From Pseudomonadota bacterium (GTDB lineage: Archaea > Thermoplasmatota > SW-10-69-26 > JACQPN01 > JAJPHT01), in the NCBI GenBank assembly GCA_021325135.1, contig JAJPHT010000046.1, positions 1 to 64,000 on the forward strand: a DNA stretch of 64,000 nt, in the 5' to 3' direction. A program made the position numbers and the translations under genes. Each line of letters starts with the position of its first letter. The first letter of the stretch is position 1. The notes beneath the pieces were generated by a model. It was not told the origin of the DNA and did not search any database. It saw only the letters and a program-made list of their open reading frames with translations. Positions 9,518 to 54,493 of this stretch are shown here, piece by piece.

Positions 9518-9611
9518 GCAACCCGAACCCACGAACCACCGAACCGAGTAGGGCCGTGGTTCGTCGGTTCGGTGGTTCGGGTTGCGGCGGGGGAAAGGGG
9601 GCGCAGCCCCC
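9518..9611. repeat. palindromic REP/MITE-like element, family 1, copy 1
   Basis: (GAACC)x3 at 8-nt period facing (GGTTC)x3, plus terminal GGGGGCGCAGCCCCC hairpin; inverted near-copy at 47724-47838. Confidence 0.85.
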
Positions 9612-9683
9612 AGCAAGGGAGACGCCCACGGAACGGCCGCGCCCCGCAAACGCTCATGCCCAAGCCGCGGCGTGGGGAAGGGC

Positions 9684-11567
9684 GTGCTCAAGGTCGACCT
9701 CGCCACGGTCCCCGAGGAGCCCGGCGTCTACCTGTTCAAGGACGACGCGGGGACCATCCTCTACGTGGGGAAGGCGGGGAGCCTCAAGGCGCGCCTCGCG
9801 AGCTACCGCGCCGGCAACCTCGACCCGCGCAAGGAGGCCATGCTGGAGAAGGCCACCAGGGTGGACCTCATCCTCACCACCTCCGAGAAGGAGGCGCTCC
9901 TCCTCGAAAGCTCGCTCATCAAGGCCAACCACCCGCGCTACAACGTCACGCTCACCGACGACAAGCGCTACCCGTTCATCCTGCTCACCGACCACCAGTA
10001 CCCGCGGGCGAGGATCGTGCGCGACACGCGCGCCAAGGGGCGCCTCTTCGGGCCCTTCCCCAACGCGGGCGCCGCGTGGCGGACGCTGAAGACCATGCAG
10101 GAGGTCTTCCGCATCCGCGACTGCAAGGAGCTGATCCCCGGCGGGTGCCTCAGCTACCAGATGCGCATGTGCTGGGGGCCGTGCATCAAGGACCCCGAGG
10201 AGCGGCGGCGCAAGACCGTGGACCGCGGCCTCTCCGACGTGGACCCCGAGGAACGATATCACGAGGCCGCGCAGCAGGCGGAGGCGTTCCTCAAGGGCGA
10301 CGCCGACCGCCTCGCCCGCGAATTGCAGCGCCAGATGGAGGAGGCCGCGAAGGGCGAGCAGTACGAGCGCGCCGCGCAGCTTCGCGACCGCCTCACCGCC
10401 ATCACGACCACGCTCCAGCACCAGGCCATCTTCGCGGGCGGCAAGGAGGACCGCGACGTCTTCACCGTCCACCGCGAAGGCCCCGCGTGGGTGGGCGTCG
10501 TCGTCCTCATGCGCCACGGCCAGGTGGCGGGCCAGGAGACGTTCTTCTTCCGCCAGGCGCAGGCCCACGAGGTGGGAGAGGTCCTGGCCGAGTTCATCCA
10601 GCGCTACTACGAGAACCTCCCCAGCGTGCCCCGCGAGGTGCTCGTCCCCGAGATGCCCCTGGGCCACGAGGGGCTCGCCGCGTGGCTCGCCGAGAAGCGC
10701 CAGGGCCCCGTGGACGTGCGCGTGCCGCAGAAGGGCGACCTCAGGCACGTCCTGGAGCACGCGCAGCGCAACGCCGAGTTCCGCCTGGGCCAGGAGCGCC
10801 TCAAGCGCGGCGAGGACGAGCACCGGAAGGAGCTTGTCGCGCTCCAGGCCGCGCTGAAGCTCCCCACGCTGCCGCGCCGGATCGAGTGCTTTGATATCTC
10901 GCACCTGGGCGGCACGGGCGTCGTCGCCAGCATGAGCGTGCTCCTGGACGGCCGCGCCGCGCCCTCCGAGTACCGCCGCTTCAAGGTGAGCACCGAGCGC
11001 AACGACGACTTCGCGGCCATGGAGGAGGTCGTCCGCCGCCGCTACTCGCGCCTTCAGAAGGAGGGGGGCGCCTTCCCGGACCTCGTCCTCATCGACGGCG
11101 GCATGGGGCAGCTCAACGCCGCGCGCGCCGCCCTCTCCGCGCTGGGCCTCGACGCGCAGCCCCTCGCCTCGCTGGCCAAGAAGGAGGAGGAGGTCTACCT
11201 TCCCAACCTGCTGCGGCCCCTCGCGCTGGGGCGCGCCAGCGACGCGCTGCTGCCCCTCATGCGCGTGCGCGACGAGGCCCACCGCTTCGCCGTGAGCTAT
11301 CAAAGGGCCAGCCGCAGGAAGCAGCTCCGCGAGAGCGCGCTGGACAGCGTGCCCGGCCTGGGCCCCGCCAAGAAGCGCGCCCTCCTCGCGCACTTCGGCA
11401 GCGTGGAGGACGTGCTGCGCGCCCGGGAGGAGGACCTCGCCCGCGTCCCCGGCATCGGGCCCAAGCTCGCCAAGGCCATCCTGGAGCCCGCCGCGGCCAG
11501 CAAGGCCGCCGAGTCCATCGCGCCCGCCGAGGAGGCCTCCTGGAAGCGCAAGCGCGACGCCGCGTGA
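9684..11567 (+). CDS. uvrC: excinuclease ABC subunit C
   Basis: GIY-YIG (PGVYLFKD..ILYVGKA), 4-Cys cluster, RIECFDISH, DLVLIDGG, RDEAHRFA, C-terminal HhH; GTG start inferred. Confidence 0.95.
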   Translation: MLKVDLATVPEEPGVYLFKDDAGTILYVGKAGSLKARLASYRAGNLDPRKEAMLEKATRVDLILTTSEKEALLLESSLIKANHPRYNVTLTDDKRYPFILLTDHQYPRARIVRDTRAKGRLFGPFPNAGAAWRTLKTMQEVFRIRDCKELIPGGCLSYQMRMCWGPCIKDPEERRRKTVDRGLSDVDPEERYHEAAQQAEAFLKGDADRLARELQRQMEEAAKGEQYERAAQLRDRLTAITTTLQHQAIFAGGKEDRDVFTVHREGPAWVGVVVLMRHGQVAGQETFFFRQAQAHEVGEVLAEFIQRYYENLPSVPREVLVPEMPLGHEGLAAWLAEKRQGPVDVRVPQKGDLRHVLEHAQRNAEFRLGQERLKRGEDEHRKELVALQAALKLPTLPRRIECFDISHLGGTGVVASMSVLLDGRAAPSEYRRFKVSTERNDDFAAMEEVVRRRYSRLQKEGGAFPDLVLIDGGMGQLNAARAALSALGLDAQPLASLAKKEEEVYLPNLLRPLALGRASDALLPLMRVRDEAHRFAVSYQRASRRKQLRESALDSVPGLGPAKKRALLAHFGSVEDVLRAREEDLARVPGIGPKLAKAILEPAAASKAAESIAPAEEASWKRKRDAA

Positions 11568-11572
11568 GCCGG

Positions 11573-13162
11573 TCAGCGCAGGAAGCGGAAGGTCGACCCG
11601 ATGAGGAGCGCGTGCAGGGCGCCCAGCGCCAGGACGGCCACGGTGAGCCAGGCGTGGAATTCCCGCGCCTCCTTCCAGCGCAGGGGCGCCCACTTCGCCA
11701 TGACGAGCCCGGAGGCGCCCAGGACGCCCAGCATCGCGAGCGCGAGATAGCCCGTCCAGACGCCGGCCGAGGCGTTGCCCGCGTAGGCCCCCGCCATGAG
11801 GACGGCGCCGTGGGTGAGCGCGACGAGGCTCGCGCCGACGGCGGGCAGGGCGTGGAGGTCGAGCCAGGCGGGCCAGCGCAGGCGCGGCGGGAGGCCCAGC
11901 AGCCGCCGGCGCCGCGCCTCCCAGCCCAGGTAGGCGGGCAGGAGCGTCAGCGGCACCGCGAGCCAGCCCAGCGCGCGGCCCCAGGTCGTGCCCAGCCCGC
12001 TCGTCTGCGAGCCCGCGAGGTCGAGCCTCCCCGCCGCGTGGCGCGCGGACGCGTTGACGATCCCCGCGCTGTGGTAGGGAAGGTCGTCGGGGGCGCCCCC
12101 GCCGTGGGCGAAGTGCGCCGTGGCGTCCAGCGAAAGGGGGAGCGCGCCGCCCGAGGGCACGAGAAAGCCCACCGTCGCGGTCTGGCCCGGGCGCAGCGTC
12201 GGGACGGGCCGCGTCTCGTTGCCCAGCTTCACCGTGGTCCCCGTCACGTCGTGATGCCACGGGTCGGCCACCGTGACGTTGACCCACGCCGTGCCGTCGG
12301 GGTTGGGCGCCACGTCCGTCGTCGCCTGGAAGGAGACGAAGCCCGCGTGGTGCGACTGGCAGTCGGCCTGCTCGGCCTTGCCCACGAGGTCCAGCGTGCT
12401 GCTGCCCGCCTCCACCTTGTCGACGTGGACCCGGACGCGCACGGTCTCCCCCGCCAGGGGCGGATTGAAGTCGACGCGCACCAAGGCGTCGTCCACCACC
12501 GTCACGCGCCCGTCCGAGGCCTGCCCGTCGTCCTCGACGTGCACGGGCGCGCCCACCGCGGGCTCGTGGCGGACGGTCACGGTCGCGTTGGTGAGGTTGA
12601 CCACCACCGAGGGCCAGTAGGGGTAGCGATGCACGGTCGCGTCAAGCGCGGGGTCCGCGCGGATCGTGACGGCGCGCGGGCCCACGGAGAGCACCGTCGC
12701 GGGCCACGCGGGCAGGTCGACCACGTCGCCGGGCGACGCGTCGTGGCCCAGGTAGCGCGCAAGCTGCTGGCGCGAGACCTGGCTCACGCGCTGGAGCGTC
12801 TCCACGCGGGAGACGTTCACGACGTCGCCCCACGACCAGCTGCCGAACGCGCCCGCGGGGCCCAGGGTCGCGTTGAGCGTCTCCCCCGCCGAGGCGTTGA
12901 CGAGCGCGTCCGCGAGGCCGGGCAGCACGTCGCCGGGCACGCCCGCCGTGAACCTCTCGGGCTGCGGCGTCGAGTAGACGAGCGTGCCATTCGCAGTGTC
13001 GAAGGCGTCGACGCTCGCCAGAACGATATCGCCGGGCTGCGCGACGTCCACGGTGACGCTCTGCGCGGGCGGCGCGAACGCGCCGAAGGGCACGCTCAGC
13101 GCGAGGGGCGCCAGGATGGCGAGCGCGGAGGCGGCGACCACGAGAAGGAGGCGCCAGCGCAC
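11573..13162 (-). CDS. exported FKBP/SlyD-type PPIase-like domain fused to an Ig-like domain and a His-containing 4-TM (cytochrome b/ferric reductase-like) domain
   Basis: Signal peptide; VLPGLADAL, LGPAGAFG, VDFNPPLAGETV (FKBP/SlyD); TM histidines WLDLH, LTHG, REFHAW, LHAL; start uncertain. Confidence 0.6.
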   Translation of the reverse strand: MRWRLLLVVAASALAILAPLALSVPFGAFAPPAQSVTVDVAQPGDIVLASVDAFDTANGTLVYSTPQPERFTAGVPGDVLPGLADALVNASAGETLNATLGPAGAFGSWSWGDVVNVSRVETLQRVSQVSRQQLARYLGHDASPGDVVDLPAWPATVLSVGPRAVTIRADPALDATVHRYPYWPSVVVNLTNATVTVRHEPAVGAPVHVEDDGQASDGRVTVVDDALVRVDFNPPLAGETVRVRVHVDKVEAGSSTLDLVGKAEQADCQSHHAGFVSFQATTDVAPNPDGTAWVNVTVADPWHHDVTGTTVKLGNETRPVPTLRPGQTATVGFLVPSGGALPLSLDATAHFAHGGGAPDDLPYHSAGIVNASARHAAGRLDLAGSQTSGLGTTWGRALGWLAVPLTLLPAYLGWEARRRRLLGLPPRLRWPAWLDLHALPAVGASLVALTHGAVLMAGAYAGNASAGVWTGYLALAMLGVLGASGLVMAKWAPLRWKEAREFHAWLTVAVLALGALHALLIGSTFRFLR

Positions 13163-13256
13163 GGGAGCGCGACTCCGCCCGCGCGGCCAAGGCGTTTCCG
13201 GCACGAACCTTGCGTCCGCGCGAAAGGATGATCGCCTCCGGGCGGCATGGCGCCGC

Positions 13257-13547
13257 GTGGCCGAGCCCTACGAGTACGTCGCCCCGCTCATCACGGCGCT
13301 CCTGGCGCTGATCCCCCTGGTCGCGCTGGCGAGGGCGTGGCGCCGCACGCGCTCGACGCGCCTCCTGCTCGCGGCCGCGGCGTTCGCCACGTTCTTCGCC
13401 AGCGGCGTCGCCCTCTTCACCCTCGCGATCCTCGACCCCGCGACCTCGGACGCCGTGGAGTGGATCGAGTTCGCGAGCGACGTCGCCATCGTCGGCCTCT
13501 TCGCGCTCTCCTTCCTCTGGCCGCGGAATGAGCCGAATGCCGCCTGA
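13257..13547 (+). CDS. small 3-TM membrane protein
   Basis: Hydrophobic C-terminal part of ORF 12984..13547; overlaps the downstream HTH gene. Confidence 0.6.
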   Translation: MAEPYEYVAPLITALLALIPLVALARAWRRTRSTRLLLAAAAFATFFASGVALFTLAILDPATSDAVEWIEFASDVAIVGLFALSFLWPRNEPNAA

Positions 13548-14049
13548 CCCCGTCGAGATCGGGCCGCGGCGCGACCTCTTGGCCCTGGTCCGCGCGCATC
13601 CGGGCATGCACCTGCGCGAGCTGGAGCGCGCGAGCGGGCTCGCCCTGGGCGCGCTGCGCCACCACCTGGACTACCTCCTGGCGGCGGGCCTGGTCAAGGA
13701 CGAGGAGGACGGGCGCCTGCGCCGCGTCTACCCGGCGGGCCTCGACCCCCCGCTGCGGAAGGCCCTCGCCGCGCTGCGCCCCCGCGCCCACCGCGCCGTC
13801 GTCCTGCACCTGCTCAACCATCCCGGCGGGACGACGCGGGACGTGGCCGCGGCGCTGGCGTTCCCCGAGACGACGGCGGGCCACTACCTGCGCGCGCTCG
13901 CGTCCGCGGGCATCGTCGTGCGCGAGCGCGCGGGGCACCGCCTCGCGGACCCGGAGGCCGTGGTGCGCGCGCTGGTCGCGTACCGGCCCAGCTTCGCGGA
14001 TCGGCTCGTGGACGCGGCCCTGGAGATCTGGTTCGAGACGGGGGACTAG
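13537..14049 (+). CDS. tandem winged-helix transcriptional regulator
   Basis: Two HTH repeats: HPGMHLREL..LRHHLDYL and HPGGTTRDV..GHYLRAL. Confidence 0.8.
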   Translation: MPPDPVEIGPRRDLLALVRAHPGMHLRELERASGLALGALRHHLDYLLAAGLVKDEEDGRLRRVYPAGLDPPLRKALAALRPRAHRAVVLHLLNHPGGTTRDVAAALAFPETTAGHYLRALASAGIVVRERAGHRLADPEAVVRALVAYRPSFADRLVDAALEIWFETGD

Positions 14050-14111
14050 CGCCGGCAGGAAAGGTTCTTGACAGCCACCCGCTTTCCCGGCCCAATCAAG
14101 GGGACTTACCC

Positions 14112-15241
14112 ATGGCGAACGGCACGTGGAAGGCCGGCCTCGAGGGCGTGGTCGCCGGCAAGACGGCGCTGAGCATGGTGGACGGCCAGCAGGGCCGCCT
14201 CACGTACCGCGGCTTCGACATCGGCGACCTCGCGCGCAGCTCGTCGTTCGAGGAGGTCGCGCACCTCCTCTGGCACGGCAAGCTCCCCACCAAGGCCGAG
14301 CTGGCCGACACGCGGGAGCGCCTCGCCAAGGAGCGCGCGCTCCCCAACGACGTCGTCGCGCTGCTGAAGGTCCTCGCCGGCCGCAGCCCCCCATGGACGC
14401 GCTGCGCACCAGCGTCAGCGCCCTCTCCCCCTTCGACCCCGACGTGGAGAAGAACGACCCCGCTGGAAATCTGCGCAAGGCGCACCGCATCACGGCCAAG
14501 ACCGCCACCATCATCGCGTCCTACCACCGCCTCCGCGAGGGGCAGGACCCCATCGCGCCCCGCACGGACCTCAGCCACGCCGCGAACTTCCTCTACATGC
14601 TCTCGGGCAAGGAGCCCGACGCCGAGATCGCCCGCGACTTCGACGTGGCGCTGGTGCTGCACGCGGACCACGGGTTCAACGCCAGCACGTTCAGCGCGCG
14701 CGTCACCGCCAGCACGCTCAGCGACATGCACAGCGCCATCACCAGCGCCGTGGGCACGCTCAAGGGCCCCCTGCACGGCGGCGCCAACGAGGCCGTCATG
14801 CACATGCTGGAGGACATCGGCAGCGCGGACAAGGCCGAGAAGTACATCGTCGAGAAGCTGGGCGCCAAGGAGAAGATCCCCGGCTTCGGCCACCGCATCT
14901 ACAAGGTCCTCGACCCCCGCGCGCCCTACCTCAAGGACATGAGCCACCGCCTCGGCCAGCGCGGCGGCAACCTCCAGTGGTACGAGATGAGCACCAAGAT
15001 CCAGGCCAAGGTCAAGGCCATGAAGGGGCTCGACGCCAACGTGGACTTCTACAGCGCCTCCACGTACCACAGCATGAACATCCCCACGGACCTGTTCACG
15101 CCCATCTTCGCCCTCTCCCGGGTGGCCGGCTGGAGCGCCCACGTCATGGAGCAGCTCTCCGACAACCGCCTCTACCGACCCGACGCCGAGTACGTCGGGC
15201 CCGACCGGCAGGAGTACGTCCCCCTGGAGAAGCGGGGGTAG
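14112..15241 (+). pseudogene. citrate (or 2-methylcitrate) synthase with a single frameshift at the C6 run 14387-14392 (possibly a sequencing error)
   Basis: Frame 1 gives GLEGVVAG..GRLTYRG; frame 2 continues PMDALRT..HADHGFNAST..GPLHGGAN..GFGHRIY..NVDFYS. Confidence 0.85.
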
Positions 15242-15348
15242 ACATCTCCCCACCCTTGACACGAGGATGGGGGCCCGTTGCCTCCTGTGAACCTCCGGGA
15301 AGCGCCCGCCGAAAGGGTCATGGCAAGTAGGCGCAGAGCACGTCGGGC

Positions 15349-15594
15349 TTGTGTGGCCCCGAGGTCCCCTGGGACTGGCTGATGATGGACATCAGCTTCG
15401 TCATGGTGCTGGTGGGTGGCGGGATGACGCTGCGCGTGCGGGGAGTGAGCCCGTTCACGTGGCTCGCCTTCGGCCTCCTGTCGACGTGCGTCGGCGGGTT
15501 CCTCTTCGCGGCCACGGCGGAAGCCAACGCCGCGCTGGTGGCGGGAGCGCAAACCGCTTCCAACGTGGCGATGCTCGCCGGCTGCTCCCCATGA
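15349..15594 (+). CDS. small membrane protein
   Basis: 81-aa hydrophobic ORF whose stop overlaps the next start (ATGA); start uncertain. Confidence 0.35.
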   Translation: MCGPEVPWDWLMMDISFVMVLVGGGMTLRVRGVSPFTWLAFGLLSTCVGGFLFAATAEANAALVAGAQTASNVAMLAGCSP

Positions 15595-16064
15595 CGTGGC
15601 AGGATCGCCTCCGGCGGGAAGGCGCGCTCCAGCGCTACCCGCACCACGACCTCGTGTACCACGTCGGGCTCGCCCCGCCCGTGCCTCCGGAGTACGCGGT
15701 GCCGGGCCTCGTCGGGCTGACGTTCCGCCTGGGGCGGCGCCCCGGCGGAGGGCCCCTCTACGCGACGCTCCTGGACGCCGCCGCGGCGGTGCGCCTGGGC
15801 CAGCGGCTCGGCCTCGGGGAGGCCGAGTCGGTGGCCATGGTGGACAGCCACGAGCGCGTGCACGTCGCGCTCCAGCTCGACTACGAGCGCCTGGACGAGG
15901 TGCCCCCCGAGACGGAGGAGCGCCACTCGCACGTCGCGGACGCCGCGTGGCTCTCCCTGCGCCACCCGCGCGCGGAGCGCCTCGTGGAGGAGTCCGGCGG
16001 CCGCATCCTCGACGTCATGGGGCGCGGCTTCTGGAGCCTCCTCGTGGACGAGGCGCAGGAATAG
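15591..16064 (+). CDS. hypothetical protein
   Basis: MTWQDRLRREG..., typical high-GC3 codon usage. Confidence 0.6.
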   Translation: MTWQDRLRREGALQRYPHHDLVYHVGLAPPVPPEYAVPGLVGLTFRLGRRPGGGPLYATLLDAAAAVRLGQRLGLGEAESVAMVDSHERVHVALQLDYERLDEVPPETEERHSHVADAAWLSLRHPRAERLVEESGGRILDVMGRGFWSLLVDEAQE

Positions 16065-16168
16065 GGCACCCACCGGTGGTGGAACTGACGGCCGAGTGCC
16101 CCGGCCTGTGATGGGCCTTCCCGGCATGGACTCCCCGGCCAGCGCCGGTGCGCCCCAGCGGCGGGGCG

Positions 16169-16873
16169 CTAGGCCTGCTGGCGCCCCAGGTAGAAGCGCC
16201 GGTAGAGGCGCCCCCAGAAGGGGTTGGGGAAGAACGTGAGGAGGGGCACGGCGACGCAGATCACGAACCCCGCCACGGGGTTGACCAGGGCGACGACCAG
16301 CGCGACGGCGAAGAGGACGGGCCCCACGGCAATGGCGACGCGCGTGCCGCGGAAGATGCGCCGGTCGAACACCGGGTTGAGCATGAGCGGGTCCTTGGTC
16401 GCGTAGAGGAGCATCTGCTGGAGCGCGAGGCCGCAGAGGATGAGGTTCACGCAGTAGAGCAGGATGGCGAGGCGGTCGAAGGGGAAGCTGCCCAGGTAGT
16501 GCGTGGAGAAGGGGACGAGGCTCACGAAGAGGAGGTAGAGCACGGTGGAGACCATGAGCGGCCGGTCGGAGCGGATGATGTAGTGGAACGCGATGGCGTG
16601 GGCCACCCAGTACGTGCCCAGCAGGATGAACGACATCGCGTAGACCAGCAGCGGGATGTGGAAATCGGCCCAGAACTCGGCCGGCGTGAGGGCCGGGCGG
16701 TTGAAGTCCGCGATCATGGTGAACGCCAGGAGCGTCATGGCGATGCTGAACACGCCGTCGCTGAGGCTCTTGATGCGGGAGGTGTCGCTGTAGTGCGACT
16801 CGTGGTCCAGGTCGTGGACCTTCTCCGGGATGTGGGGGCGCAGGCGCTCGGCGCGCGACTCTTGGCGGGCCAT
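16169..16873 (-). CDS. TMEM175-family (DUF1211) potassium channel
   Basis: RIKSLSDGVFSIAMTLL signature, YWVAH, LVPFST; multiple TM segments. Confidence 0.85.
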   Translation of the reverse strand: MARQESRAERLRPHIPEKVHDLDHESHYSDTSRIKSLSDGVFSIAMTLLAFTMIADFNRPALTPAEFWADFHIPLLVYAMSFILLGTYWVAHAIAFHYIIRSDRPLMVSTVLYLLFVSLVPFSTHYLGSFPFDRLAILLYCVNLILCGLALQQMLLYATKDPLMLNPVFDRRIFRGTRVAIAVGPVLFAVALVVALVNPVAGFVICVAVPLLTFFPNPFWGRLYRRFYLGRQQA

Positions 16874-16922
16874 GCTGCCGCAGCACGCCACGCCCGCGGA
16901 TGAGGGCTTCCAAGGCGCGCGC

Positions 16923-17387
16923 TCAGCGCGGCAGGCCCAGGACCTCGACGTGGAGGCGCACGGAGCCGCTCCGCTGGGAGACGAGGAGCGCCTGGTGGCC
17001 CGCCGCCGCGGGGGAGCACTCGAACGAAAGGGTCTGCCCCTGGGCGGTGAGGTCGCCGAAGGAGTGGCCGCAGCCCAGGCCGTCGGCGCGCAGGCCCACG
17101 GTGGCGCCCTGGAGCAGCGTGACCGAGACGCGGACGCCGCTGAGGTTCGCGGGGACGTCCACGGGGACGGACACGCTGTCGTTCACCGGGCCCACGTCGG
17201 GGAGCGTCGCGTTGGCCAGGGGGAAGGGCGCGCGGGGGGAGGGCGCCAGGGCGGCCGGGGCGAGGGGCGCGCCCGTGGAGGCGAGGGCCGCCGGCTGGGG
17301 CGCGTCCGCGAAGAGGGCGATTGCGGCGAACGCGAGGAGGCTGCCCAGGGCGAACGCCGCCAGGAGCCCGAGTCCGAGCCTCCGCAT
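16923..17387 (-). CDS. secreted or membrane-anchored hypothetical protein
   Basis: N-terminal hydrophobic MRRLGLGLLAAFALG, beta-rich C-terminus. Confidence 0.55.
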   Translation of the reverse strand: MRRLGLGLLAAFALGSLLAFAAIALFADAPQPAALASTGAPLAPAALAPSPRAPFPLANATLPDVGPVNDSVSVPVDVPANLSGVRVSVTLLQGATVGLRADGLGCGHSFGDLTAQGQTLSFECSPAAAGHQALLVSQRSGSVRLHVEVLGLPR

Positions 17388-17505
17388 GGCCCGGCCCAGG
17401 GGTGGGGGGAGCTTGACCGTTGTGGCGGCAGCGTCGTCCGGTGGCCGCGCAAGGCCGCGGCAGGAAAGCACTTGACCCGGCTCGGGCCTCGCCGGCCGAT
17501 CCGCG

Positions 17506-19032
17506 ATGCCCCGCGCCCTGCTCCTTGCCGCGCTGCTCCTCCTGCCCGCCCTGGCGGGGTGCCTGGGCGCCCAGCCCTCGGCCACCCCCGCGTCGGGCTC
17601 CGCCGCCTGCGTGGCGGGCTCCGCCGCGTGCGCCATCGTGGACGGCGCGTCCACCGTGGCGCCCAAGGAGCGGCAGGCCAACGAGCTCTCCATCGCGGTG
17701 AACCCGACGAACCCGCTCAACGTCATCGCGACGGGCAAGGACTACACGCCCGACGAGGCGGGCGACTGCACGTGGGCGGGCGTGTACGCGACGACGGACG
17801 GCGGCAAGACGTGGAAGGACCAGAACGTGCCGGGCTCCCCGTGGAAGATGCGCAGCGACCCCACGGCCGCGCAGGACCGCACTCCCTTCAGCACCTTCTG
17901 GTGCGCCACCGACCCCGTCGTGCGCTTCGGCCCCGACGGCACGGCGTACTGGGCCGTCATGCCCTACCAGTGCGACCCGGCCTCCGGCAGCAAGACCGGC
18001 GAGGGCACGCTCCCCCAGGGCGGGCTCAACGACTTCGCGTTCACGTGCAGCGCGATGTACATCCTCGTCTCCACCGACGGGGGCCTCACGTGGCCCTTGG
18101 ACAAGGCGCGGCAGATCAGCACGGGCGGCTACCTGGTCCACGACAAGGAGTGGATCGCCGTCTCGCAGGACGGCAACCGCCTCGTCTACTGCTGGGACTA
18201 CCAGGGGCTTGGCGCCACGACGCCCGACATGATGGTCCACGCGCCCGACCCCAACGAGAGCGGCGTCGTGTGCAGCGTCTCCAAGGACAAGGCCAACACG
18301 TGGAGCGACTTCGCCTTCGCGACCGCCGTGGGCGGCAGCCCCGAGGTGGACTTCGACGCCAAGGGCAAGGCGTGGATGGTCGTCACCGGCGCGGATGGCC
18401 ACTACGTGCTCTCCAGCGACGACGGCCTGAAGTGGAGCCAGCCCGTGAAGGCGGCCACGTTCAAGGACCCCAGCGCGCAGAACGCCCACGGCCGCAACGT
18501 GCTCAACGGCAGCGAGTTCCGCGTCTCCTCCTACGGCACCATCGCCGTGGACCGCGGCAACGGCACGCACGCCGGGCGCGTCTACGTGGCGTACTTCGAC
18601 TACAGCGCGGGCAACGGCGAGACGATGCTCGTCTGGAGCGACGACGGCAAGACGTGGAGCCAGCCCGTCCGCGTGAACGACGACGCGGGCAGCGCCGACC
18701 AGTTCCTCCCCGCCTTGAGCGTGGGCCCCGACGGCACGGTGGACGTCTCGTGGCAGGACCGCCGCGACGACCCCGCCAACCACCTCTTCGCGACGTACTA
18801 CGCGTACAGCCTCGACGGGGGCGCCACCTTCTCGCGCAACCAGCGCGTCAGCAGCGCGCTCTCGGACGAGCAGTACTCGCACCACCAGAACGGCGACGTC
18901 TTCCTGGGCGACTACCGCGACATGGGCTCCTCGCGCGGCTCCGCCACCATGGTGTGGGTCGACACGAGGAACCACAAGGCCGATGCCTTCGTGGCGACGG
19001 TGCCGCGGCCCTCGGCGGACGCCGCGCGGTGA
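17506..19032 (+). CDS. BNR/Asp-box (sialidase-like) lipoprotein
   Basis: Lipobox ALAGC; Asp-boxes TTDGGKTW, STDGGLTW, SDDGKTW, SLDGGATF; close paralogue at 51326. Confidence 0.8.
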   Translation: MPRALLLAALLLLPALAGCLGAQPSATPASGSAACVAGSAACAIVDGASTVAPKERQANELSIAVNPTNPLNVIATGKDYTPDEAGDCTWAGVYATTDGGKTWKDQNVPGSPWKMRSDPTAAQDRTPFSTFWCATDPVVRFGPDGTAYWAVMPYQCDPASGSKTGEGTLPQGGLNDFAFTCSAMYILVSTDGGLTWPLDKARQISTGGYLVHDKEWIAVSQDGNRLVYCWDYQGLGATTPDMMVHAPDPNESGVVCSVSKDKANTWSDFAFATAVGGSPEVDFDAKGKAWMVVTGADGHYVLSSDDGLKWSQPVKAATFKDPSAQNAHGRNVLNGSEFRVSSYGTIAVDRGNGTHAGRVYVAYFDYSAGNGETMLVWSDDGKTWSQPVRVNDDAGSADQFLPALSVGPDGTVDVSWQDRRDDPANHLFATYYAYSLDGGATFSRNQRVSSALSDEQYSHHQNGDVFLGDYRDMGSSRGSATMVWVDTRNHKADAFVATVPRPSADAAR

Positions 19033-19383
19033 GGGCCTCGCTCCGGATCGCCGCTGCCGGCTCGCGTGTGGTGAAGGACGAGCGCTCCACGGTCTCGCAT
19101 CCGCGGCCCCCTGAAACCCCGTTGCAGTCGGGTACCGTCCAACTGAATCAAGCGCATTGCGGGTTCTGTGTCCAAATCAGGTCGGACCGACCAGTCAAAT
19201 TCCCGCTCGGCACCCACTCAGGATACGCTTTGCGAGCAAGACGCGTTCCGTGGAGACGAAGAATCTCACCGAGTAGTTCCAGTGGAAGTTGAAGTTCTCC
19301 CTGCGCGCGAGAATTCTCTGCAAGAGTGGCCGACGATACCGGCAGAGCTTAAGGCGGAGGGCAAACCTTGGCTTAGAGTCCTG

Positions 19384-20472
19384 ATGCCCGAGACTTTCAA
19401 CTCAGCGCTGCCTGGCGAGCAACAGTCGATTCGCCGCGGAGCTTGGGTGGACGCATTGCCGGAGCCTGGGTCCGTAGTAGTGCGCGTCGGCGACTCTGCT
19501 TCACTGCTTCGCGACCTCGCGCCGGAATCGGTCGATTGCGTGATTACCAGCCCCCCATATTGGGGTCATCGCGACTATTCGGCAGGTGGCATTGGACAGG
19601 AGCCGACCGTCCAGGGCTATGTGGAGGCATTGCTCTCAGTTTTCGAGCCGCTTCAGAAGGCGCTCAAACCGACGGGATCATTCTGGCTCAACCTCGGTGA
19701 CACATATCGAAGCAAGCGGCTGCAGGGGATACCTTGGCGAGTGGCCATAGCGATGGTGGATGAACAAGACTGGATTCTTCGCAACGATGTTATTTGGAAC
19801 AAGGTGAAAGGATCGCCAGACAACGCGAAGGACAAGCTTCGCAATCTGCACGAGCACATCTTTCATTTTGTGAAGGACCCAAAGAAAGCATACTACGACG
19901 TTGACGCAATTCGCAGGCCGCCTCGGGCGGCTACGGAGCGAAACGGCAAGGTTCAGTCCGCAACCGGCGTTAGTGGAACAAGATACCGTCGCCAAATCGA
20001 GCTCTCCACCGTCCTTTCGGAAACGGAGAAGGTGGCCGCGATGAGCGCTCTAGATGAGATGATGCAAAGCGTCAAAGCGGGGGAGATATCCGACTTTCGA
20101 ATGGTCATTCGTGGAGTCCATCGAGTCACTCACTCGGACTCGGTTCGGCTCTCAGGGCGCGCCAAGGAACTCGCCGACCGAGGTTTCTACTTCCTCAAGT
20201 ATCATCCAAAAGGAGCGAAACCATCGGACATCTGGGAGATTATTCCCGAAGACACACACGGAAGGGAAGCCCACTATGCTGCCTACCCCGAAGCGCTCTG
20301 CGAGATTCCAATTCAGGCAACGTGCCCTCCGGATGGCCTCGTGCTTGATCCCTTCCTCGGTACGGGTACAACACTTGTCGTAGCAAAGCGGTTGGGTCGC
20401 CGTGCGCTCGGTATTGACATCTCCAAAGAGTATGCAGCAATTGCAGAAGCCCGCATCAAAGAGGTTGCATGA
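19384..20472 (+). CDS. DNA methyltransferase, beta class (probably N4-cytosine)
   Basis: ITSPPY catalytic motif precedes the VLDPFLGTGTT SAM motif; start uncertain (19384 or 19447). Confidence 0.88.
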   Translation: MPETFNSALPGEQQSIRRGAWVDALPEPGSVVVRVGDSASLLRDLAPESVDCVITSPPYWGHRDYSAGGIGQEPTVQGYVEALLSVFEPLQKALKPTGSFWLNLGDTYRSKRLQGIPWRVAIAMVDEQDWILRNDVIWNKVKGSPDNAKDKLRNLHEHIFHFVKDPKKAYYDVDAIRRPPRAATERNGKVQSATGVSGTRYRRQIELSTVLSETEKVAAMSALDEMMQSVKAGEISDFRMVIRGVHRVTHSDSVRLSGRAKELADRGFYFLKYHPKGAKPSDIWEIIPEDTHGREAHYAAYPEALCEIPIQATCPPDGLVLDPFLGTGTTLVVAKRLGRRALGIDISKEYAAIAEARIKEVA

Positions 20473-21317: not shown

Positions 21318-21587
21318 ATGATGGGCCATAATAACGCAAAATAGCTTGTCCATTCATGACTCCACAAAAATACGTCTCCGCAGGATTATTGGGCGGCGGT
21401 GTTTCACGGCAGTACGCGCAACTGGTCGCTGCTGCCCCTTCCTCCCTTTCTCCGTGCCAAACCACCAGATCCTCGGACCTCGGCACAACCGCCGGGGATT
21501 CGGCATGGACGGGGGGCCTCGGGCGAGGGGGATTCTGCAACACCGTCAAGCCCTGCGATCGCGCCAGGCCGGTCGCGCGCGGTCCCC

Positions 21588-24240: not shown

Positions 24241-24373
24241 CGCGCCGCAGCGCGCGCACTCATGGGGGTTTCAGGGGGCGAAGCCCCCTGACGTGAAGTC
24301 GTCTGACCAGAGAAACGAGACGTCAGGGGGCTTCGCCCCCTGAAACCCCCTAGGGTCGCCGCGCTGCGGCGCG
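24241..24373. repeat. palindromic REP/MITE-like element, family 2, copy A
   Basis: Perfect 31-bp arms 24264-24294 and 24320-24350, each with a GGGGGCGAAGCCCCC hairpin; outer arms CGCGCCGCAGCGCG; near-copy at 54305-54458. Confidence 0.9.
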
Positions 24374-24399
24374 GCGGAGACGACTCTCCATGGATCAGA

Positions 24400-34020: not shown

Positions 34021-34035
34021 AGCCATGATCGACAA

Positions 34036-34135
34036 GGGTCCAAAGAACGCGACGAGCGCAAAGAGCGCGAAGGACGCGACGAAAGGAAACATCGCGACCT
34101 TGGCGCTCTTTGCGCTCGTCGCGTTCTTTGGACCC
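34036..34135. repeat. 100-bp palindrome with internal 9-nt periodicity (family 3) between lysC and asd
   Basis: 44-nt arms with 2 mismatches and a 12-nt loop; arm built of AAGAACGCG/ACGAGCGCA/AAGAGCGCG/AAGGACGCG units. Confidence 0.9.
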
Positions 34136-34155
34136 GAGCCAGCAGGTGACCCATC

Positions 34156-42250: not shown

Positions 42251-42251
42251 G

Positions 42252-43847: not shown

Positions 43848-43883
43848 GGCGGCGCGAGGCGCGGCGCCCCGGATAAGCGCTTC

Positions 43884-45596: not shown

Positions 45597-45725
45597 CGCC
45601 CCTGGCTGGGCGACCCGGCCTCTTCAAGGGGCGTCCGTCCCGGGAGGGCGGACTCGGCGCGTCCGCTGGGGGAAAAAAGGAGAAAAAAGGAGGGCCGCCC
45701 CCGGAGGGGCGGCGGAGCGCCGCGC

Positions 45726-47564
45726 TCAGGCGCAGCCGTGGGCGGGGTCCGACGCCGCGGCGACGCTGCGGCCGCCGACGTCCTGGCCCGTGGGGTTCAG
45801 GCTCGAGCCCGCGCCCACGAGCGTGGTGTCGTAGCAGTCCGTGTCGCGGAGGTTGTACGAGCCGCCCACGAGGCCGAGGAACCGCTCGTTCAGCTTCGCG
45901 CCGGTGGTGGGGTCGAGGTTCCAGTTGGCGGGGTCGCAGTTCCAGCCGTACACGTCGTGCGCGTTGCGGCCGATGCCCTGCGTGCACCACTCGGCGCCGT
46001 AGGTGCCCACGCCGCCGGGCGTGCGCAGGCCGGAGGCGGTGACGGTCGCGTAGAACGTGTAGTAGTCCGCGCGGAACGTGTCGGGCGCGACGCTGAGGCT
46101 GTCCTTCGTCTCCGCGTTGGGGGCGCCGACGCTGGGCTGCGTGCCCAGGTAGGTGACGCCGTTCCACCACTCGTCGGAGGTCAGCAGCAGGATGCCCACC
46201 GCGTGCACGGGCTGGCCGCCGTTGCTGGGCCGGCCGCACGTCAGGCCGCCGGAGCCGGGGACCGTGACGACGGGCAGCTCGGGCAGGGGGTCGCCGTTGG
46301 GGTCGATGGAGACGTCGTCGCAGGTGCTGCGGCCCATGACGCCCTGGAAGCCGAAGCTCATGTCGGCCTGGGTCTTGTCCGACGCGTAGGTGGCGCCGGA
46401 GTCGCTGGCCTCGAAGTTGCCGTAGAAGTCGCCGCCGCTGTCGTTGCTGGTGTCGCAGTCGCCCAGGAGCTCCTCGTTGGTCTCGTTGACCGTGGCGGGG
46501 ATCGTGCCCTGCGCGTTGGGCTGGAGGGTGCCGGGCGGGCGGACGGTCTGGATGTCGCCGGGGTCCGCGACGCCGCCCTCGGCGGGCGTGCCGGTGGCGG
46601 GGTCCGAGACGGTGATGGGGTCCGCGCTGCAGTCCTGCTCGCCCCAGACGATGCTGTTGCTGCCGCCGTGGCAGTCCTTCTCGGACACGTCCTGGCCGTC
46701 CTTGCAGCTCTGCTCGGTGCCGAAGGTGGGCTGGTCCAGGGGGCCGCCGGGCTGGTAGAGCGAGCGGGGGTCGGGGAGCGTCTGGACGATGCCGGTGGGG
46801 TCGTCCGCGACGCCCGTGTTGTAGAGGTCGTGCGGGGTGGGCGCGCGGGTGGACTCCACGCACACGAGGTGCTGGATGATGCCGCCCGTGTGGGACACGT
46901 CGCCGTGGCCGAAGGGGGGCACGATGCTCACCTGGCGGCAGTGGTCGCTGGGGACCAGGGGGCCGCCGGGGGTCACGGGCGCCGTGTGCAGGTCGCCCCA
47001 GACCTTGATGCCGGCGTCCGGGATGAGGCGGTAGTTGTTGGCGTTGGCCATGAGCTCGGTGGTGTCCGTGCCGCCGATGCTCGCGGGCGCGATGGGGATC
47101 AGCTCGGTGATCCAGCCGCCGTCGTTGTGGATGGTGCCCGCGTGCGCGGCGTCGTCAGGGGTGACGGGGCAGATGTCCGTGTTGACCGGGAAGCCGGCCG
47201 CGGCGCTGGCCTCGGCGCGGTACTCGATGAGCGCGCCGCCGGCGAAGCCGACGTAGCCGTCCTGGTTGCAGTCCGCCCAGACGCCCAGGACGGAGCGCCA
47301 GGCGCCCTCGCCCACGGTGCTGACGCGGCTCTGGAGGATCGCCGAGTTGGGGGCGACGCCGCCGTTGGTGCCTTCCGCGTTGTACACGTTGAAGTAGACC
47401 TGGGCGGTGGCGGTGCCCGGGGCGTCCGACCACATGAAGCCGTGGCCGACGTCGTAGCCCGAGTCGGGCTCGGCGCCGCCGACTGAGCCCCAGCCCGCCA
47501 GGGCCGAGGGGACAAGCATGGCCGTCGCCAGCGCGACAGCCGAAAGGGTGACGATGCGATTCAT
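45726..47564 (-). CDS. large secreted acidic, Cys-containing protein (surface/extracellular)
   Basis: Signal peptide MNRIVTLSAVALATAMLVPSALA; D/T/G-rich; DCNQDGYV Ca-binding-like loop. Confidence 0.75.
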   Translation of the reverse strand: MNRIVTLSAVALATAMLVPSALAGWGSVGGAEPDSGYDVGHGFMWSDAPGTATAQVYFNVYNAEGTNGGVAPNSAILQSRVSTVGEGAWRSVLGVWADCNQDGYVGFAGGALIEYRAEASAAAGFPVNTDICPVTPDDAAHAGTIHNDGGWITELIPIAPASIGGTDTTELMANANNYRLIPDAGIKVWGDLHTAPVTPGGPLVPSDHCRQVSIVPPFGHGDVSHTGGIIQHLVCVESTRAPTPHDLYNTGVADDPTGIVQTLPDPRSLYQPGGPLDQPTFGTEQSCKDGQDVSEKDCHGGSNSIVWGEQDCSADPITVSDPATGTPAEGGVADPGDIQTVRPPGTLQPNAQGTIPATVNETNEELLGDCDTSNDSGGDFYGNFEASDSGATYASDKTQADMSFGFQGVMGRSTCDDVSIDPNGDPLPELPVVTVPGSGGLTCGRPSNGGQPVHAVGILLLTSDEWWNGVTYLGTQPSVGAPNAETKDSLSVAPDTFRADYYTFYATVTASGLRTPGGVGTYGAEWCTQGIGRNAHDVYGWNCDPANWNLDPTTGAKLNERFLGLVGGSYNLRDTDCYDTTLVGAGSSLNPTGQDVGGRSVAAASDPAHGCA

Positions 47565-47723
47565 TGCTCCAACACTCCACGGGCTGGGATAGCCTCCTCC
47601 AAGCTCCGTGGGCCTCGCTATCGCTTGTCATGAGAAAAGAGTTGCCTGGCGGCAAGGCCGGGACAGCGCCGTTGTCACCCTGGGGGGCAACGCGAAGGGG
47701 CTGTCCTCCATGGGCGCTCGCTA

Positions 47724-47838
47724 GGGGCTGCGCCCCCTTTCCCCCGCACAACCCGAACCACCGAACCCACGAACCACGGTTCCTACTGTGGTTCGTGGGT
47801 TCGGGTTGCCAGAGGGTCTGGGGGACGAAGTCTCCCAG
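47724..47838. repeat. palindromic REP/MITE-like element, family 1, copy 2 (inverted relative to copy 1)
   Basis: GGGGCTGCGCCCCCTTTCCCCCGC..AACCCGAACCACCGAACC..GTGGTTCGTGGGTTCGGGTTGC matches the reverse complement of 9518-9611; ends in GGGGGACGAAGTCTCCC. Confidence 0.85.
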
Positions 47839-47876
47839 GAAGAGCGCCAGCGATCAGGCGGGCCCCGGCTTGCCCT

Positions 47877-51125
<3,249 letters not shown>

Positions 51126-51133
51126 GGGGCTCG

Positions 51134-51178
51134 GACCTTGCGCCCATAGAGGGGGCCCGTATTTAGCCGTATCCCCGC
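51134..51178 (-). promoter_or_regulatory. carB promoter/operator motif shared with carA
   Basis: Sense GCGGGGATACGGCTAAATACGGGCCCCCTCTATGGGCGCAAGGTC; matches 24121-24164. Confidence 0.75.
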
Positions 51179-51325
51179 AGCGGAACCTGCGTTTCTCCTG
51201 GGGAAACGGACGGAAGGACAGACGTGTCCGGAACGGGTCACGGATGTCGTCCGGTGTCGGGAGCGGGACGGCGGGGCGCCCCAACGTTCATGGACCTTAG
51301 CAGGGCTCGCCGGAGCGATCCGCGA

Positions 51326-52858
51326 ATGAAGGCCCCGCTCCTCGCGCTGCTCCTGGCCATCCCCGCGCTGACGGGCTGCATTCAGCCCTCCACGCCGACG
51401 CCCGCGCCCGGCTCGTTCGGCGACTCGGCCGCGAAGCTGGCGTGCATCGATGGCGCGTGCAACTTCCAGGCGACGGCGTCGCCCTCGGGCCGCCAGGGGA
51501 ACGAGGTCTCCGTCGCGGTGAACCCCGCCGACCCCAAGGTCATCATCGCCACCGCCAAGGACTACACGCCCGACGAGGCGGGGGACTGCGTGTGGGCGGG
51601 CCTCTACAGCACGCAGGACGGCGGCAAGACGTGGCTGGACCAGAACGTGCCCGGCTCGCCGTGGAAGCACGAGAGCGATCCCACCACGCCCGTCACGGCG
51701 TTCACGAAGTTCTGGTGCGCCACCGATCCCGTGGTCGCGTGGAGCCCCGACGGCAAGACCGGCTACTGGGCCGTGATGCCCTACCAGTGCGATCCCGTCT
51801 CGGGGAGCAAGACGGGGCGCGGCACGGAGTCCAGGGGCGGGTTCAACGACTGGCTCTACACCTGCAGCAGCATGTTCGTCCTCGTCTCGCACGACGGGGG
51901 GAAGACGTGGCCCGCGGACGAGGCGCAGCAGGTGAGCCTCGGGCCTTTCATCGCCAACGACAAGGAGTGGATCAGCGTCTCGCCCGACGGCAAGAAGGTC
52001 CTCCTCTGCTGGGACTACGCGGGCGACACCGGCGGCGGGCCTGGCCTCCCCGGCGAGATCCCCGGGCTCCCCTTCGGGACGCCCAGCCCCAACGCGGCCG
52101 TCGTGTGCTCCGTCTCCGCGGACCAGGCCAAGACGTGGAGCAAGCCCGCGCCCGCCACCGACGCGGGCGGCTTCCCGTGGCTGGACTTCGACTCCACCGG
52201 CAAGGCGTGGATGGCCGTCGTCAACGACAGCGCGGTGCTGGTGCTCAGCAGCGCGGACGGCGTCTCGTGGAGCAAGCCCGTCGTGGCCGCCAGCTACGGC
52301 ATGCCCAGCGGCACCAACGAGTACGGCTGGCCCGTGCTCAACGGCAGCGCGTTCCGCATCGTGCCCTACGGCGCCCTCGCGGTGGACCGCACCTCGGGCC
52401 CGCACCACGGGCGCCTCTACGTCGCGTACTTCGACTTCGAGAACGGCACGGGCCACGCGATGCTCACGTGGAGCGACGACGGCAAGGCGTGGAGCGCGCC
52501 CGTGGACCTCTCCGACGCGCCGCAGTTCGACCAGTTCCTGCCCGCCGTGAGCGTGGGCCCCGACGGCACCGTGGACGCCTCGTGGCTCGACCGCCGCGAC
52601 GATCCCAGGCACCACCTCTACGACCTCTATTATTCGTACAGCCTGGACGGCGGCCTCTCGTGGGCGAAGAACCTGCGCGTGACCAACGTGAGCAGCGACG
52701 AGCAGTACTCGCACCACCAGAACGGCATGGTCTTCCTGGGCGACTACCGCGACATGCGCAGCGCGCGCGGGCAGGCCACCATGATCTGGGTCGACACGCG
52801 CAACCACAAGGCGGACGCCTTCGTCGCCACCGTGGATCGCCCCTCCGCGTCGTCGTAA
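51326..52858 (+). CDS. BNR/Asp-box (sialidase-like) lipoprotein, paralogue of 17506..19032
   Basis: Lipobox ALTGC; shares KDYTPDEAGDC, WCATDPVV, SDEQYSHHQNG, WVDTRNHKADAFVATV. Confidence 0.8.
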   Translation: MKAPLLALLLAIPALTGCIQPSTPTPAPGSFGDSAAKLACIDGACNFQATASPSGRQGNEVSVAVNPADPKVIIATAKDYTPDEAGDCVWAGLYSTQDGGKTWLDQNVPGSPWKHESDPTTPVTAFTKFWCATDPVVAWSPDGKTGYWAVMPYQCDPVSGSKTGRGTESRGGFNDWLYTCSSMFVLVSHDGGKTWPADEAQQVSLGPFIANDKEWISVSPDGKKVLLCWDYAGDTGGGPGLPGEIPGLPFGTPSPNAAVVCSVSADQAKTWSKPAPATDAGGFPWLDFDSTGKAWMAVVNDSAVLVLSSADGVSWSKPVVAASYGMPSGTNEYGWPVLNGSAFRIVPYGALAVDRTSGPHHGRLYVAYFDFENGTGHAMLTWSDDGKAWSAPVDLSDAPQFDQFLPAVSVGPDGTVDASWLDRRDDPRHHLYDLYYSYSLDGGLSWAKNLRVTNVSSDEQYSHHQNGMVFLGDYRDMRSARGQATMIWVDTRNHKADAFVATVDRPSASS

Positions 52859-52867
52859 GGGGGCGCC

Positions 52868-53713
52868 ATGGGCCAGCTTGCCGACCGGTTCGCGGAGCTT
52901 TGCCGCGAGTACGGCAGCGACCCTTCGGCGCGCGCCTCGGACGTGCATGCGCTCGCCGCCCTGGAGGAGCGCGATCCCAAGGAGGCGCACGAGCGCTTCG
53001 TCGCGCTGCGCAAGGAGTTGGCCGTCACGCGGCGCGCCGAGCTTCTCCACGCGCTGAAGGGCTTCGCGTTCGTGCGCGACGTGCCCCCGCCCGACGTGCG
53101 CGGCATGGGACAGAAGGAGATCGACCGCGAGATCCGCTGGGCCGCCGCGTCGCTGCGCCGCGCGCGGGCCATCGTGGAGGCGTTGGCCGAGGAGGCCGCG
53201 CACCGCGCCGCGCTGGGGCTTCCCCAGGGGCCGCCCCTGGCGCCCGCGCCGTGGGACGACCTCGCGGCGCCGGAGGCCGAGGCGGAGGCGCGCCGAAGGA
53301 CCGCGGCGCGGGACGCGCGCCTCGCGCAGCGCGCCGCCGACGTGCGCCGCCGCGGCGCGAGGCACGGCCTCGACGTGCCTGCGGGCGCGGACCACGACGC
53401 GCTGGACGCCTTGGAGGCGCGCCTTGCCGAGGCGGAGGCGCTCTCGGAGGCGTTCGACGCCGTGTCGCGCGCCCTGCGCTCCCCCGACGTGGGCGAGTGG
53501 CGCCGCGAGTCGCGCCGCGCGCTGGAGCGCGAGGCCGACGCCCTGCGCGCCGCGGGCGACGCGGCGGGCCTGCGCGCGCTGGCGCCGCGGGCCGAGGCGC
53601 TGCGCGCAGAAGCGGCGCGCCTGGCCTCCGAGGCCGCGCGGGCCCGCCGCAGCGGCCGCGCCGCGCCCGCCCGCGAACGCCGCGCCGGCGACCCCCTCGA
53701 CCCCTACGGGTGA
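52868..53713 (+). CDS. hypothetical helical/coiled-coil protein
   Basis: Ala/Arg/Glu-rich 281-aa ORF, 9 nt after the lipoprotein gene. Confidence 0.6.
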   Translation: MGQLADRFAELCREYGSDPSARASDVHALAALEERDPKEAHERFVALRKELAVTRRAELLHALKGFAFVRDVPPPDVRGMGQKEIDREIRWAAASLRRARAIVEALAEEAAHRAALGLPQGPPLAPAPWDDLAAPEAEAEARRRTAARDARLAQRAADVRRRGARHGLDVPAGADHDALDALEARLAEAEALSEAFDAVSRALRSPDVGEWRRESRRALEREADALRAAGDAAGLRALAPRAEALRAEAARLASEAARARRSGRAAPARERRAGDPLDPYG

Positions 53714-53959
53714 GCGGCGCGCGCCGCCGGCCTGCGCGGGCAGTCAGCCGGACGGCGGCGACGCCTTGTAACTTCCAGCAGCATTCCCATTCACACAATC
53801 CGTTGGTCCGTACTTTGATCCGATGAGGATCGGCTTGGATTTTCCCATGCTAGAATTGTGAATCACCTTGCAGCTTCGTGCAGGACGTCCCCAAGCTTGT
53901 TATCAATCGACAACACGATTATGCATCATGGAGGCTGTTAGCGGCATGGTGGAAACACC

Positions 53960-54280
53960 ATGAAGACACTCGGAATCGTCATCAGCGCAACCCTCGTCGC
54001 CATGCTCGCCGTCGGCTTCACGCCCGCCGCCAGCGCCGCCTCCTCCTGCACCGTCTTCGGCACCGGCACGTGCACGTTCACCTGCAGCCCCGGCGAGCAG
54101 GTGTTCGTCGGCGCCGCGGGCCCCGAGGCCGTCGTCGGCTCCTGCGGCGAGGGCACCACCGCCTGCGTCGCGCCCACCGGCTCCAGCCTCTGCCAGGGCA
54201 CCACGCTCCCCCTCCTCACGGGCGGCACGGGCACCTGCGTCGCCGTCGGCACCAACGTCGCGACCTGCGAAGCGCACTAA
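53960..54280 (+). CDS. small secreted Cys-rich protein (8 Cys)
   Basis: Signal peptide ending ASA; mature part of about 79 aa is G/T/C-rich. Confidence 0.75.
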   Translation: MKTLGIVISATLVAMLAVGFTPAASAASSCTVFGTGTCTFTCSPGEQVFVGAAGPEAVVGSCGEGTTACVAPTGSSLCQGTTLPLLTGGTGTCVAVGTNVATCEAH

Positions 54281-54304
54281 GACGCGGGTTCACCCACGAC
54301 GCAA

Positions 54305-54493
54305 GTCGTCCGGCCGCGCCGCAGCGCGGCTACCCGAGGGGGTTCGGGGGGCGAAGTCCCCTGACGTTTGGATCGTCTGCTGGAACGGGACTTCACGTCA
54401 GGGGGCTTCGCCCCCTGAAACCCCCTCGGGTCGCCGCGCTGCGGCGCGGCCGGACGACGATTGCTCCGGGGGGCTGCGCCCCCCGAACCCCCC
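54305..54493. repeat. palindromic REP/MITE-like element, family 2, copy B, plus an extra family-1-type hairpin
   Basis: About 63-nt arms 54305-54367 and 54395-54458, matching copy A; followed by GGGGGGCTGCGCCCCCCGAACCCC. Confidence 0.9.

Follow-up and report, generated by a model that had tools for sequence, protein, structure and literature searches.

Introduction

What is understood of repetitive extragenic palindromes (REPs) and of the hairpins formed by REP doublets (REPINs) has so far come from bacteria and rested on a single enzyme family, the REP-associated tyrosine transposases (RAYTs), to which the bacterial interspersed mosaic elements (BIMEs), unrelated in sequence to the elements described here, are also tied. 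In the REPIN-RAYT system, hundreds of short GC-rich hairpins are found, both in inverted doublets and as solo units (PMC3116915, PMC2817692), and a doublet folds as one long or two small hairpins. Di Nocera et al. 2013 (PMC3733652) describe a second group, short palindromes (20–40 bp) bearing a CGTC-type tag on one side, reported from five bacterial phyla only and with no dedicated transposase identified. MITEs (miniature inverted-repeat transposable elements), including archaeal ones, are short, gene-less, intergenic copies whose inverted ends are those of a longer unit that bears a gene (PMC11602168, PMC10969869). Finally, PF13366 is a very widespread orphan protein family, its function listed as unknown (PMC3424549). 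Here we describe hairpin-forming foldback elements in a stretch of archaeal DNA (the window, which comprises the initial 64 kb of contig C40 in the host assembly, labelled G000) and their association with PF13366 genes located elsewhere in the same genome.

A preliminary description of the window had proposed two families of non-autonomous REP/REPIN-like palindromes, each with two copies in opposite orientation, which would share terminal modules and be moved by an HUH (Y1) enzyme encoded outside the window.

Results

Hairpin element families in the window and in the genome

The genome contains several hundred small hairpin-forming DNA elements, which are present or absent between sister species. 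The host assembly is a Thermoplasmatota metagenome-assembled genome (MAG) of 3.77 Mb in 51 contigs, with 71.6% GC, a completeness of 94% and a contamination of 5.6%; its ClpB protein is 81–86% identical to ClpBs from Thermoplasmata/Thermoplasmatota MAGs, and the host is therefore an archaeon. Our own gene map, based on codon usage, comprised 3769 genes and 2263 intergenic regions. These regions were compared all against all, a repeat being defined as a sequence recurring in at least five other regions, and 258 of them contained repeats (~27 kb summed) that clustered into families of 81, 52, 26, 21 and 10 loci plus smaller ones. Genome-wide BLAST searches with the window copies yielded 40, 87 and 32 loci for the three families found in the window. 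A strict search for arm pairs gave 77 doublets of family 2 (A in our own lettering; 71–77 overall), 23 complete palindromes of family 1 (B; 52 loci under the looser clustering), 30 copies of the third family (C) and 20 of the fourth (D). The G5 hairpin, composed of five G, C, a three-base loop, G and five C, is found 288 times in the genome, 253 of them in intergenic DNA; the mirrored C5..G5 control pattern occurs 35 times. This census of doublets, palindromes and hairpins excludes a chance origin. Copies of family C are the most alike (median nearest-neighbour identity 95.5%), followed by family 2 (92%), family 1 (90%) and family D (81%).

The elements are dispersed, mostly intergenic, modular hairpins without coding capacity. 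As single-stranded DNA, those of the window have fold energies between −38.6 and −82.7 kcal/mol, with z between −5.7 and −13.6 when compared with shuffles. None matches an Rfam 15 family at the gathering score, the only sub-threshold matches being of hairpins to a plant microRNA model (45–53 bits, with a cut-off of 124). The proposal of non-autonomous, gene-less palindromes in an archaeon is upheld by the many copies, the lack of coding capacity and the archaeal ClpB; copies run to hundreds of hairpins rather than the few in the window, and no known non-coding RNA family is matched.

All four copies of the preliminary description lie where it had placed them, and a repeat search recovers both pairs: 9554–9600 with 47733–47779 for family 1 (47 nt, 87% complementary) and, for family 2, 24241–24300 with 54389–54448 as an inverted pair (60 nt, 90%) and 24320–24375 with 54395–54450 as a direct match (98%). 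Two copies per family holds inside the window, but not for the genome, with its ~77 family-2 and ~23 complete family-1 elements. Opposite orientation has no clear meaning in family 2, since copies A and B differ in core subtype. One further family of the window, C, had been overlooked. The arms of family 1 are arrays of a CGAACC-type unit with an 8-nt period. The sharing of terminal modules is genuine, since the G5-type module is found in both families, ending family-1 copy A and starting copy B, and solo after family-2 copy B; the module of family-1 copy A also recurs outside the window, joined to further repeat families.

Family 2 is a nested palindrome built around an asymmetric core of 25–28 nt, with an arm spacing that is always 40–59 bp, and solo G5 modules are also scattered in the genome. 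A CGTC/CGTT-type tag stands just outside the stem of the outer hairpin in 59 of 77 doublets, and no GTAG was seen there among the listed flanks. For comparison, four congeners were used, among them the sister-species genomes G001, G002 and G003, of which G002 is the closest relative. The family-2 relatives in G002 have conserved arms and a different core, as in REP doublets. Among 41 relatives searched the family is confined to the genus, with at least 24 matches in G002 and 7 in G003. Among public genomes, the exact 21-nt arm was found only in the sister MAG, a Myxococcales MAG (three copies) and an Acidimicrobiaceae MAG (one copy); these matches included no large family and no informative neighbours. 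The Myxococcales MAG, CAZFIV01 (8 Mb), contains three copies of a ~31-nt stretch 91–97% like the right arm of family 2, each with arrays of a GACCAAAA-type unit ahead of it, a likeness that could be due to chance, shared mobile DNA or misbinning.

PF13366 nuclease genes within hairpin loops

One pair of family-1 arms is spaced 560 bp apart instead of ~67 bp, and the open reading frame between them encodes a protein of 147 aa that matches PF13366 (PDDEXK_3, E 3e-29) and TIGR04256 (GxxExxY). The genome has four PF13366 genes, outside the window and all located between inverted repeats (Table 1). Family 1, family C, which has a full-length relative on contig C29, and a small GATTCGG-type family are gene-less forms of these 560–620 bp units, and gene-less copies outnumber gene-bearing ones 20–30 to 1. 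A mobilizer encoded outside the window, as proposed earlier, has a candidate in the partner gene of family 1 on contig C30, and none was found for family 2 in this assembly. For family D there is no clear intact partner gene in this genome; since the G002 gene nearest to the PF13366 gene of contig C3 (61% identity) has family-D-like arms, family D may have lost its intact partner here, which fits its having the lowest copy-to-copy identity.

The proteins of the units are 110–150 aa long, and the four of this genome are diverged, with 25–51% identity to the first sequence of an 11-sequence alignment in which D60, E70 and K72 are invariant, so that the D..ExK residues are intact. A structure model of the nuclease (predicted local distance difference test, pLDDT, 91.7) shows a predicted generic PD-(D/E)XK fold and is silent on the substrate.

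The association extends beyond this genome. Inverted repeats scoring at least 30 bits flank 22 of 30 PF13366 loci in Thermoplasmatota relatives, in units that span ~440–670 bp and have CACGGAG, CACAGAG and CGCGAAG, among others, as arm units. PF13366 was present in one of five unrelated bacterial genomes sampled, a Nitrospirota bacterium, where such repeats flank six of nine loci. Control genes of similar size reached the same score in 4 of 250 cases, one of them being itself a PF13366 gene. We found no published description of PF13366 hairpin units in the searchable literature.

The window contains copies of at least three families of what we read as non-autonomous foldback elements, and we consider it somewhat probable that family 1 and family C owe their mobility to the nuclease. 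Foldback elements would colonize the intergenic DNA of the genus and leave the target unduplicated. The PF13366 nuclease would bind the arrays that make up the arms of its family and, once a hairpin or cruciform is extruded, cut this at the base or close to it; the foldback DNA thus released or copied would then be placed at a new site, and gene-less copies, which retain the arms, would be acted on in trans. The spread of family 2 probably follows a comparable route that also depends on hairpins, and selection would then spare those copies that lie directly past stop codons and clear of promoters. The bolder generalization, in which PF13366 nucleases mobilize a class of foldback elements in bacteria and archaea without target duplication and the REPIN-type G5 family also spreads free of HUH enzymes, has in our estimation a small chance of being right.

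It is also doubtful, but conceivable, that the PF13366 cassettes are secondary invaders homing into the loops of pre-existing palindromes, which something else or host recombination would spread. The excess of gene-less copies, the weak link between arm unit and protein similarity, and the existence of family 2 without any PF13366 gene would agree with such an invasion. However, each of the four diverged proteins has an arm family of its own, arms are longest and match best in the gene-bearing copies (57 bp, 98–100%), and no common cassette ends were noticed among the four units; in addition, the association spans two domains of life and many arm sequences, so that the invaders would need a loop-specific homing system of their own.

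Several points weigh against nuclease-driven mobility. Small PD-(D/E)XK nucleases are not known to transpose DNA unaided, and we infer both that the protein cuts DNA and binds the arms and how the elements move. The structure matches of the model, to lambda exonuclease, McrC, Hjc and Cas4, are weak (all E >0.03). Protein and arm similarity are weakly correlated (Spearman 0.15, permutation p 0.006), and a strict cognate pairing of gene and arm is not established, because an archaeal and a bacterial PF13366 gene with 44% identity have a common arm unit. Arms match no better within a copy than between copies, in an ungapped test that indels make unreliable for families 2 and D. Family 2, the largest family, is without a gene-bearing copy: no long version was found in this assembly, and a search in the style used for REPtrons, for genes bracketed by G5 hairpins or family-2 copies, returned ordinary genes only (those between family-2 copies being a molybdopterin oxidoreductase, a secretion ATPase and a response regulator). 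The PF13366 loci of relatives are without accompanying G5 hairpins. Finally, the completeness of the MAG is 94%, and mobile genes present in several copies often go unassembled.

Empty sites and synteny

The elements are insertional, four orthologous sites being empty in sister species, as a search for empty-site alleles revealed. At the family-C site of the window (34036), the flanking genes overlap by ATGA in G001, G002 and G003, and ~140 bp lie between them here. The family-2 copies at C30:24470 and C30:35510 are missing at the orthologous sites of G002, which have 27 and 81 bp between the flanking genes, and the family-1 copy at C23:137149 is missing in G001 and G003. A different palindrome family occupies the orthologous site of a sister species in three cases, upstream of uvrC, at C23:129207 and at C23:137149. 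The site upstream of uvrC, which holds family-1 copy A here, has in G002 (contig C21) two other palindromes, with 8-nt units of GAGCCC type and CCCGAGAA type. Target-site duplications were found in none of the four families, direct repeats in the flanks being equal to those of shuffled-pair controls.

Synteny with all four congeners breaks exactly at family-2 copy A. Relative to G002, gene order switches contig or neighbourhood at this copy (24241–24375) and at C49:59472, 64163 and 65682 and C30:31711; some of these switches are located inside G002 contigs. They may mean that the elements are hot spots of rearrangement, or that the elements mark assembly breaks at repeats. A window segment of ~820 bp (53714–54536), which comprises an A+T-richer stretch, the gene of a secreted cysteine-rich protein of 106 aa (53960–54280) and family-2 copy B, is replaced by 33 bp in G002.

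Position relative to genes

Among the 73 intergenic copies of family 2, 37 lie between convergent genes and 4 between divergent ones, on a background of 14% convergent intergenic regions. In tandem contexts, the elements of all families are nearer to the upstream stop codon than to the downstream start codon, and family C is found 8–31 bp past the stop in 18 of 20 tandem cases. This distribution is what would be expected if the elements were host-serving DNA or RNA signals, such as terminator-like 3′-end hairpins or REP/BIME-like protein sites, kept by selection and multiplied by recombination. We regard that explanation as unlikely: orthologous sites lack an element or hold one of another family, so no site needs an element; the core of family 2 shows no strand bias with respect to transcription (15 copies co-oriented, 10 opposite); and the elements are without the U-tracts that archaeal termination uses. 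The bias in position is equally well explained by the loss of insertions that hit promoters.

Searches for other candidate mobilizers

The HUH/Y1 mobilizer of the preliminary description did not materialize. PF01797 had no match in nine genomes of the taxonomic family, this MAG included and three of them 97–100% complete, with 99% and 100% among these values, although the same search found it in 6 of 14 control genomes; the partner gene of family 1 encodes a PD-(D/E)XK nuclease instead. PF07282 (the TnpB zinc-ribbon) was also without matches in this genome. The layout of family 2, its solo hairpins, the lack of target duplication and the restriction to one genus would be compatible with REPINs moved by a RAYT-type transposase located elsewhere or left unassembled, but we judge this improbable, considering the PF01797 result and the CGTC/CGTT-type tag in place of GTAG. 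Moreover, RAYTs are single-copy genes that normally assemble, according to PMC5581495. The REP/REPIN form attributed to the elements stands for family 2 in that small inverted hairpins surround a variable core; in the absence of a RAYT and of GTAG, the family is REPIN-like without belonging to the REPIN-RAYT system.

Inverted repeats spaced 250–3500 bp apart throughout the genome comprised the PF13366 units, one DDE element and one small EarA-like gene. The DDE element (C13:3648–7060) is 3.4 kb long, with 55-bp terminal inverted repeats and a DDE/rve-type transposase, and its ends are unrelated to the hairpin families. The EarA-like gene (C18:15942–16417; 109 aa), within a 26-bp inverted repeat, is a small gene of another protein family in a hairpin loop. 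A derivation of the elements from a DDE insertion sequence, as ordinary MITEs, is very improbable indeed. Terminal inverted repeats, small size, intergenic location and the existence of the DDE element would suit it, but flanks that match no better than shuffled pairs and the unrelated ends of this sole DDE element contradict it, as does the fact that no transposase-bearing copy with the arms of a repeat family was found, all gene-bearing units with those arms encoding PF13366 only.

Features of the window and neighbouring genes

The coordinates of the elements are collected in Table 1. Family-1 copy A sits between the divergent genes 8800–9432 (−) and uvrC, 9672–11567 (+), and copy B between two minus-strand genes, 45726–47564 and 47877–51125. 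Family-2 copy A is likewise located between two minus-strand genes, and copy B lies 25 bp past the stop of the small gene 53960–54280.

Table 1. Foldback elements of the window and PF13366 units elsewhere in the genome, with single-stranded DNA fold energies and z-scores
Feature	Position	Strand	Fold (kcal/mol)	z	Description
Family 1, copy A	9505–9585	none	−42.3	−6.95	outer flank 9505–9517 and 68-bp palindrome 9518–9585
G5 terminal module of family-1 copy A	9589–9611	+			G5, AAA, then G5 hairpin 9597–9611
Family 2, copy A	24241–24375	none	−73.9	−12.5	outer GC hairpin, linker, G5 module, TGACGT, 25-nt core, mirror image
Family C	34024–34147	none	−60.2	−12.9	100-bp core palindrome 34036–34135; arms with 9-nt period
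G5 terminal module of family-1 copy B	47724–47745	−			inverse orientation; hairpin at 47724–47737
Family 1, copy B	47749–47808	none			60-bp palindrome
Degenerate G5-type hairpin after family-1 copy B	47812–47838	none			from sequence and fold
Family 2, copy B	54305–54458	none	−82.7	−13.6	CGTC-type tag (GTCGTC) outside each outer hairpin
Solo G5 module trailing family-2 copy B	54468–54493	−			equivalent of a REP singlet
PF13366 unit	C30:27015–27632				family-1-type arms, 57 bp, 100% matched
PF13366 unit	C29:59230–59811				family-C arms, 57 bp, 98%
PF13366 unit	C6:66956–67515				arms of GATTCGG-type family, 28 bp
PF13366 unit	C3:46124–46673				arms 21 bp

Other repeats of the window are genic. 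The segments 17653–18995 and 51473–52827 belong to paralogous genes, 73–80% identical over ~1.3 kb, with repeated SxDxGxTW-like (BNR-type) motifs. The segments 2155–2566 and 3471–3873 form an inverted pair 76–84% similar, which makes the convergent neighbours 1847–2980 (+) and 3039–4205 (−) paralogues. Between 19033 and 21587 the codon-usage map called no gene over ~2.5 kb; this gap may be a composition anomaly or contain genes missed by the map.

Discussion

The archaeal genus studied here shows, without an HUH gene, the genomic habit known from bacterial REPs: nested hairpins, doublets, and singlets at gene ends. New are the occurrence in an archaeon, the sites found empty in congeners, the lack of target duplication and the coexistence with a REPIN-like family, likewise without an HUH gene. 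Part of the repeat repertoire is linked to PF13366. Our literature searches agree with the preliminary description that no such system had been reported in this kind of archaeon; the REPs in archaea of RepRanger (PMC12306157), 1,000–2,000 per archaeal genome, were considered as a prior description and judged, from these counts, to be generic intergenic stem-loops. If the nuclease acts on the arms, a large uncharacterized protein family would gain a role and archaea a new kind of mobile DNA, and if PF13366 proteins are mobilizers, at least one further enzyme fold, besides that of the RAYTs, would have given rise to hairpin-repeat mobility. The elements mark differences in gene order between sister species and may shape genome rearrangement in uncultured soil archaea.

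Regarding known systems, family 2 resembles the REPIN-RAYT system in its hairpins, copy number, doublets and solo units, and in the folding of the doublet as one long or two small hairpins. REPIN-RAYT and the elements of this genus also have in common that they do not duplicate the target, are restricted to a lineage and lie mostly after genes. Apart from the missing Y1/HUH gene, the missing GTAG and the archaeal host, the family-2 doublet differs from a REPIN by its extra outer hairpin and its conserved asymmetric core. By description, the tagged outer hairpins of family 2 may be comparable to the CGTC REPs; unlike them, the tagged hairpin is here the outermost part of a larger nested element. 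As in the BIMEs of Escherichia coli, which are modular mosaics (PMC2817692), the same hairpin module is found with different neighbours.

As in MITEs, short gene-less copies in intergenic DNA have inverted ends in common with a longer unit that bears the gene. In contrast to MITEs, there is no target-site duplication, the gene encodes a PD-(D/E)XK nuclease of 110–150 aa, which is not a known transposase, and the arms are arrays of 8–9 nt units, so that nearly the whole element is palindromic. Palindromes derived from IS200/IS605 differ in that neither PF01797 nor PF07282 is matched in this genome. In Ssn/NTS (PMC11893778), a small nuclease gene is likewise tied to a dispersed repeat in hundreds of copies; Ssn, reported from bacteria, has the GIY-YIG fold and is described as a modulator of transformation, not as belonging to a mobile unit. 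By analogy, Ssn/NTS may be regarded as the nearest printed counterpart of the PF13366 units.

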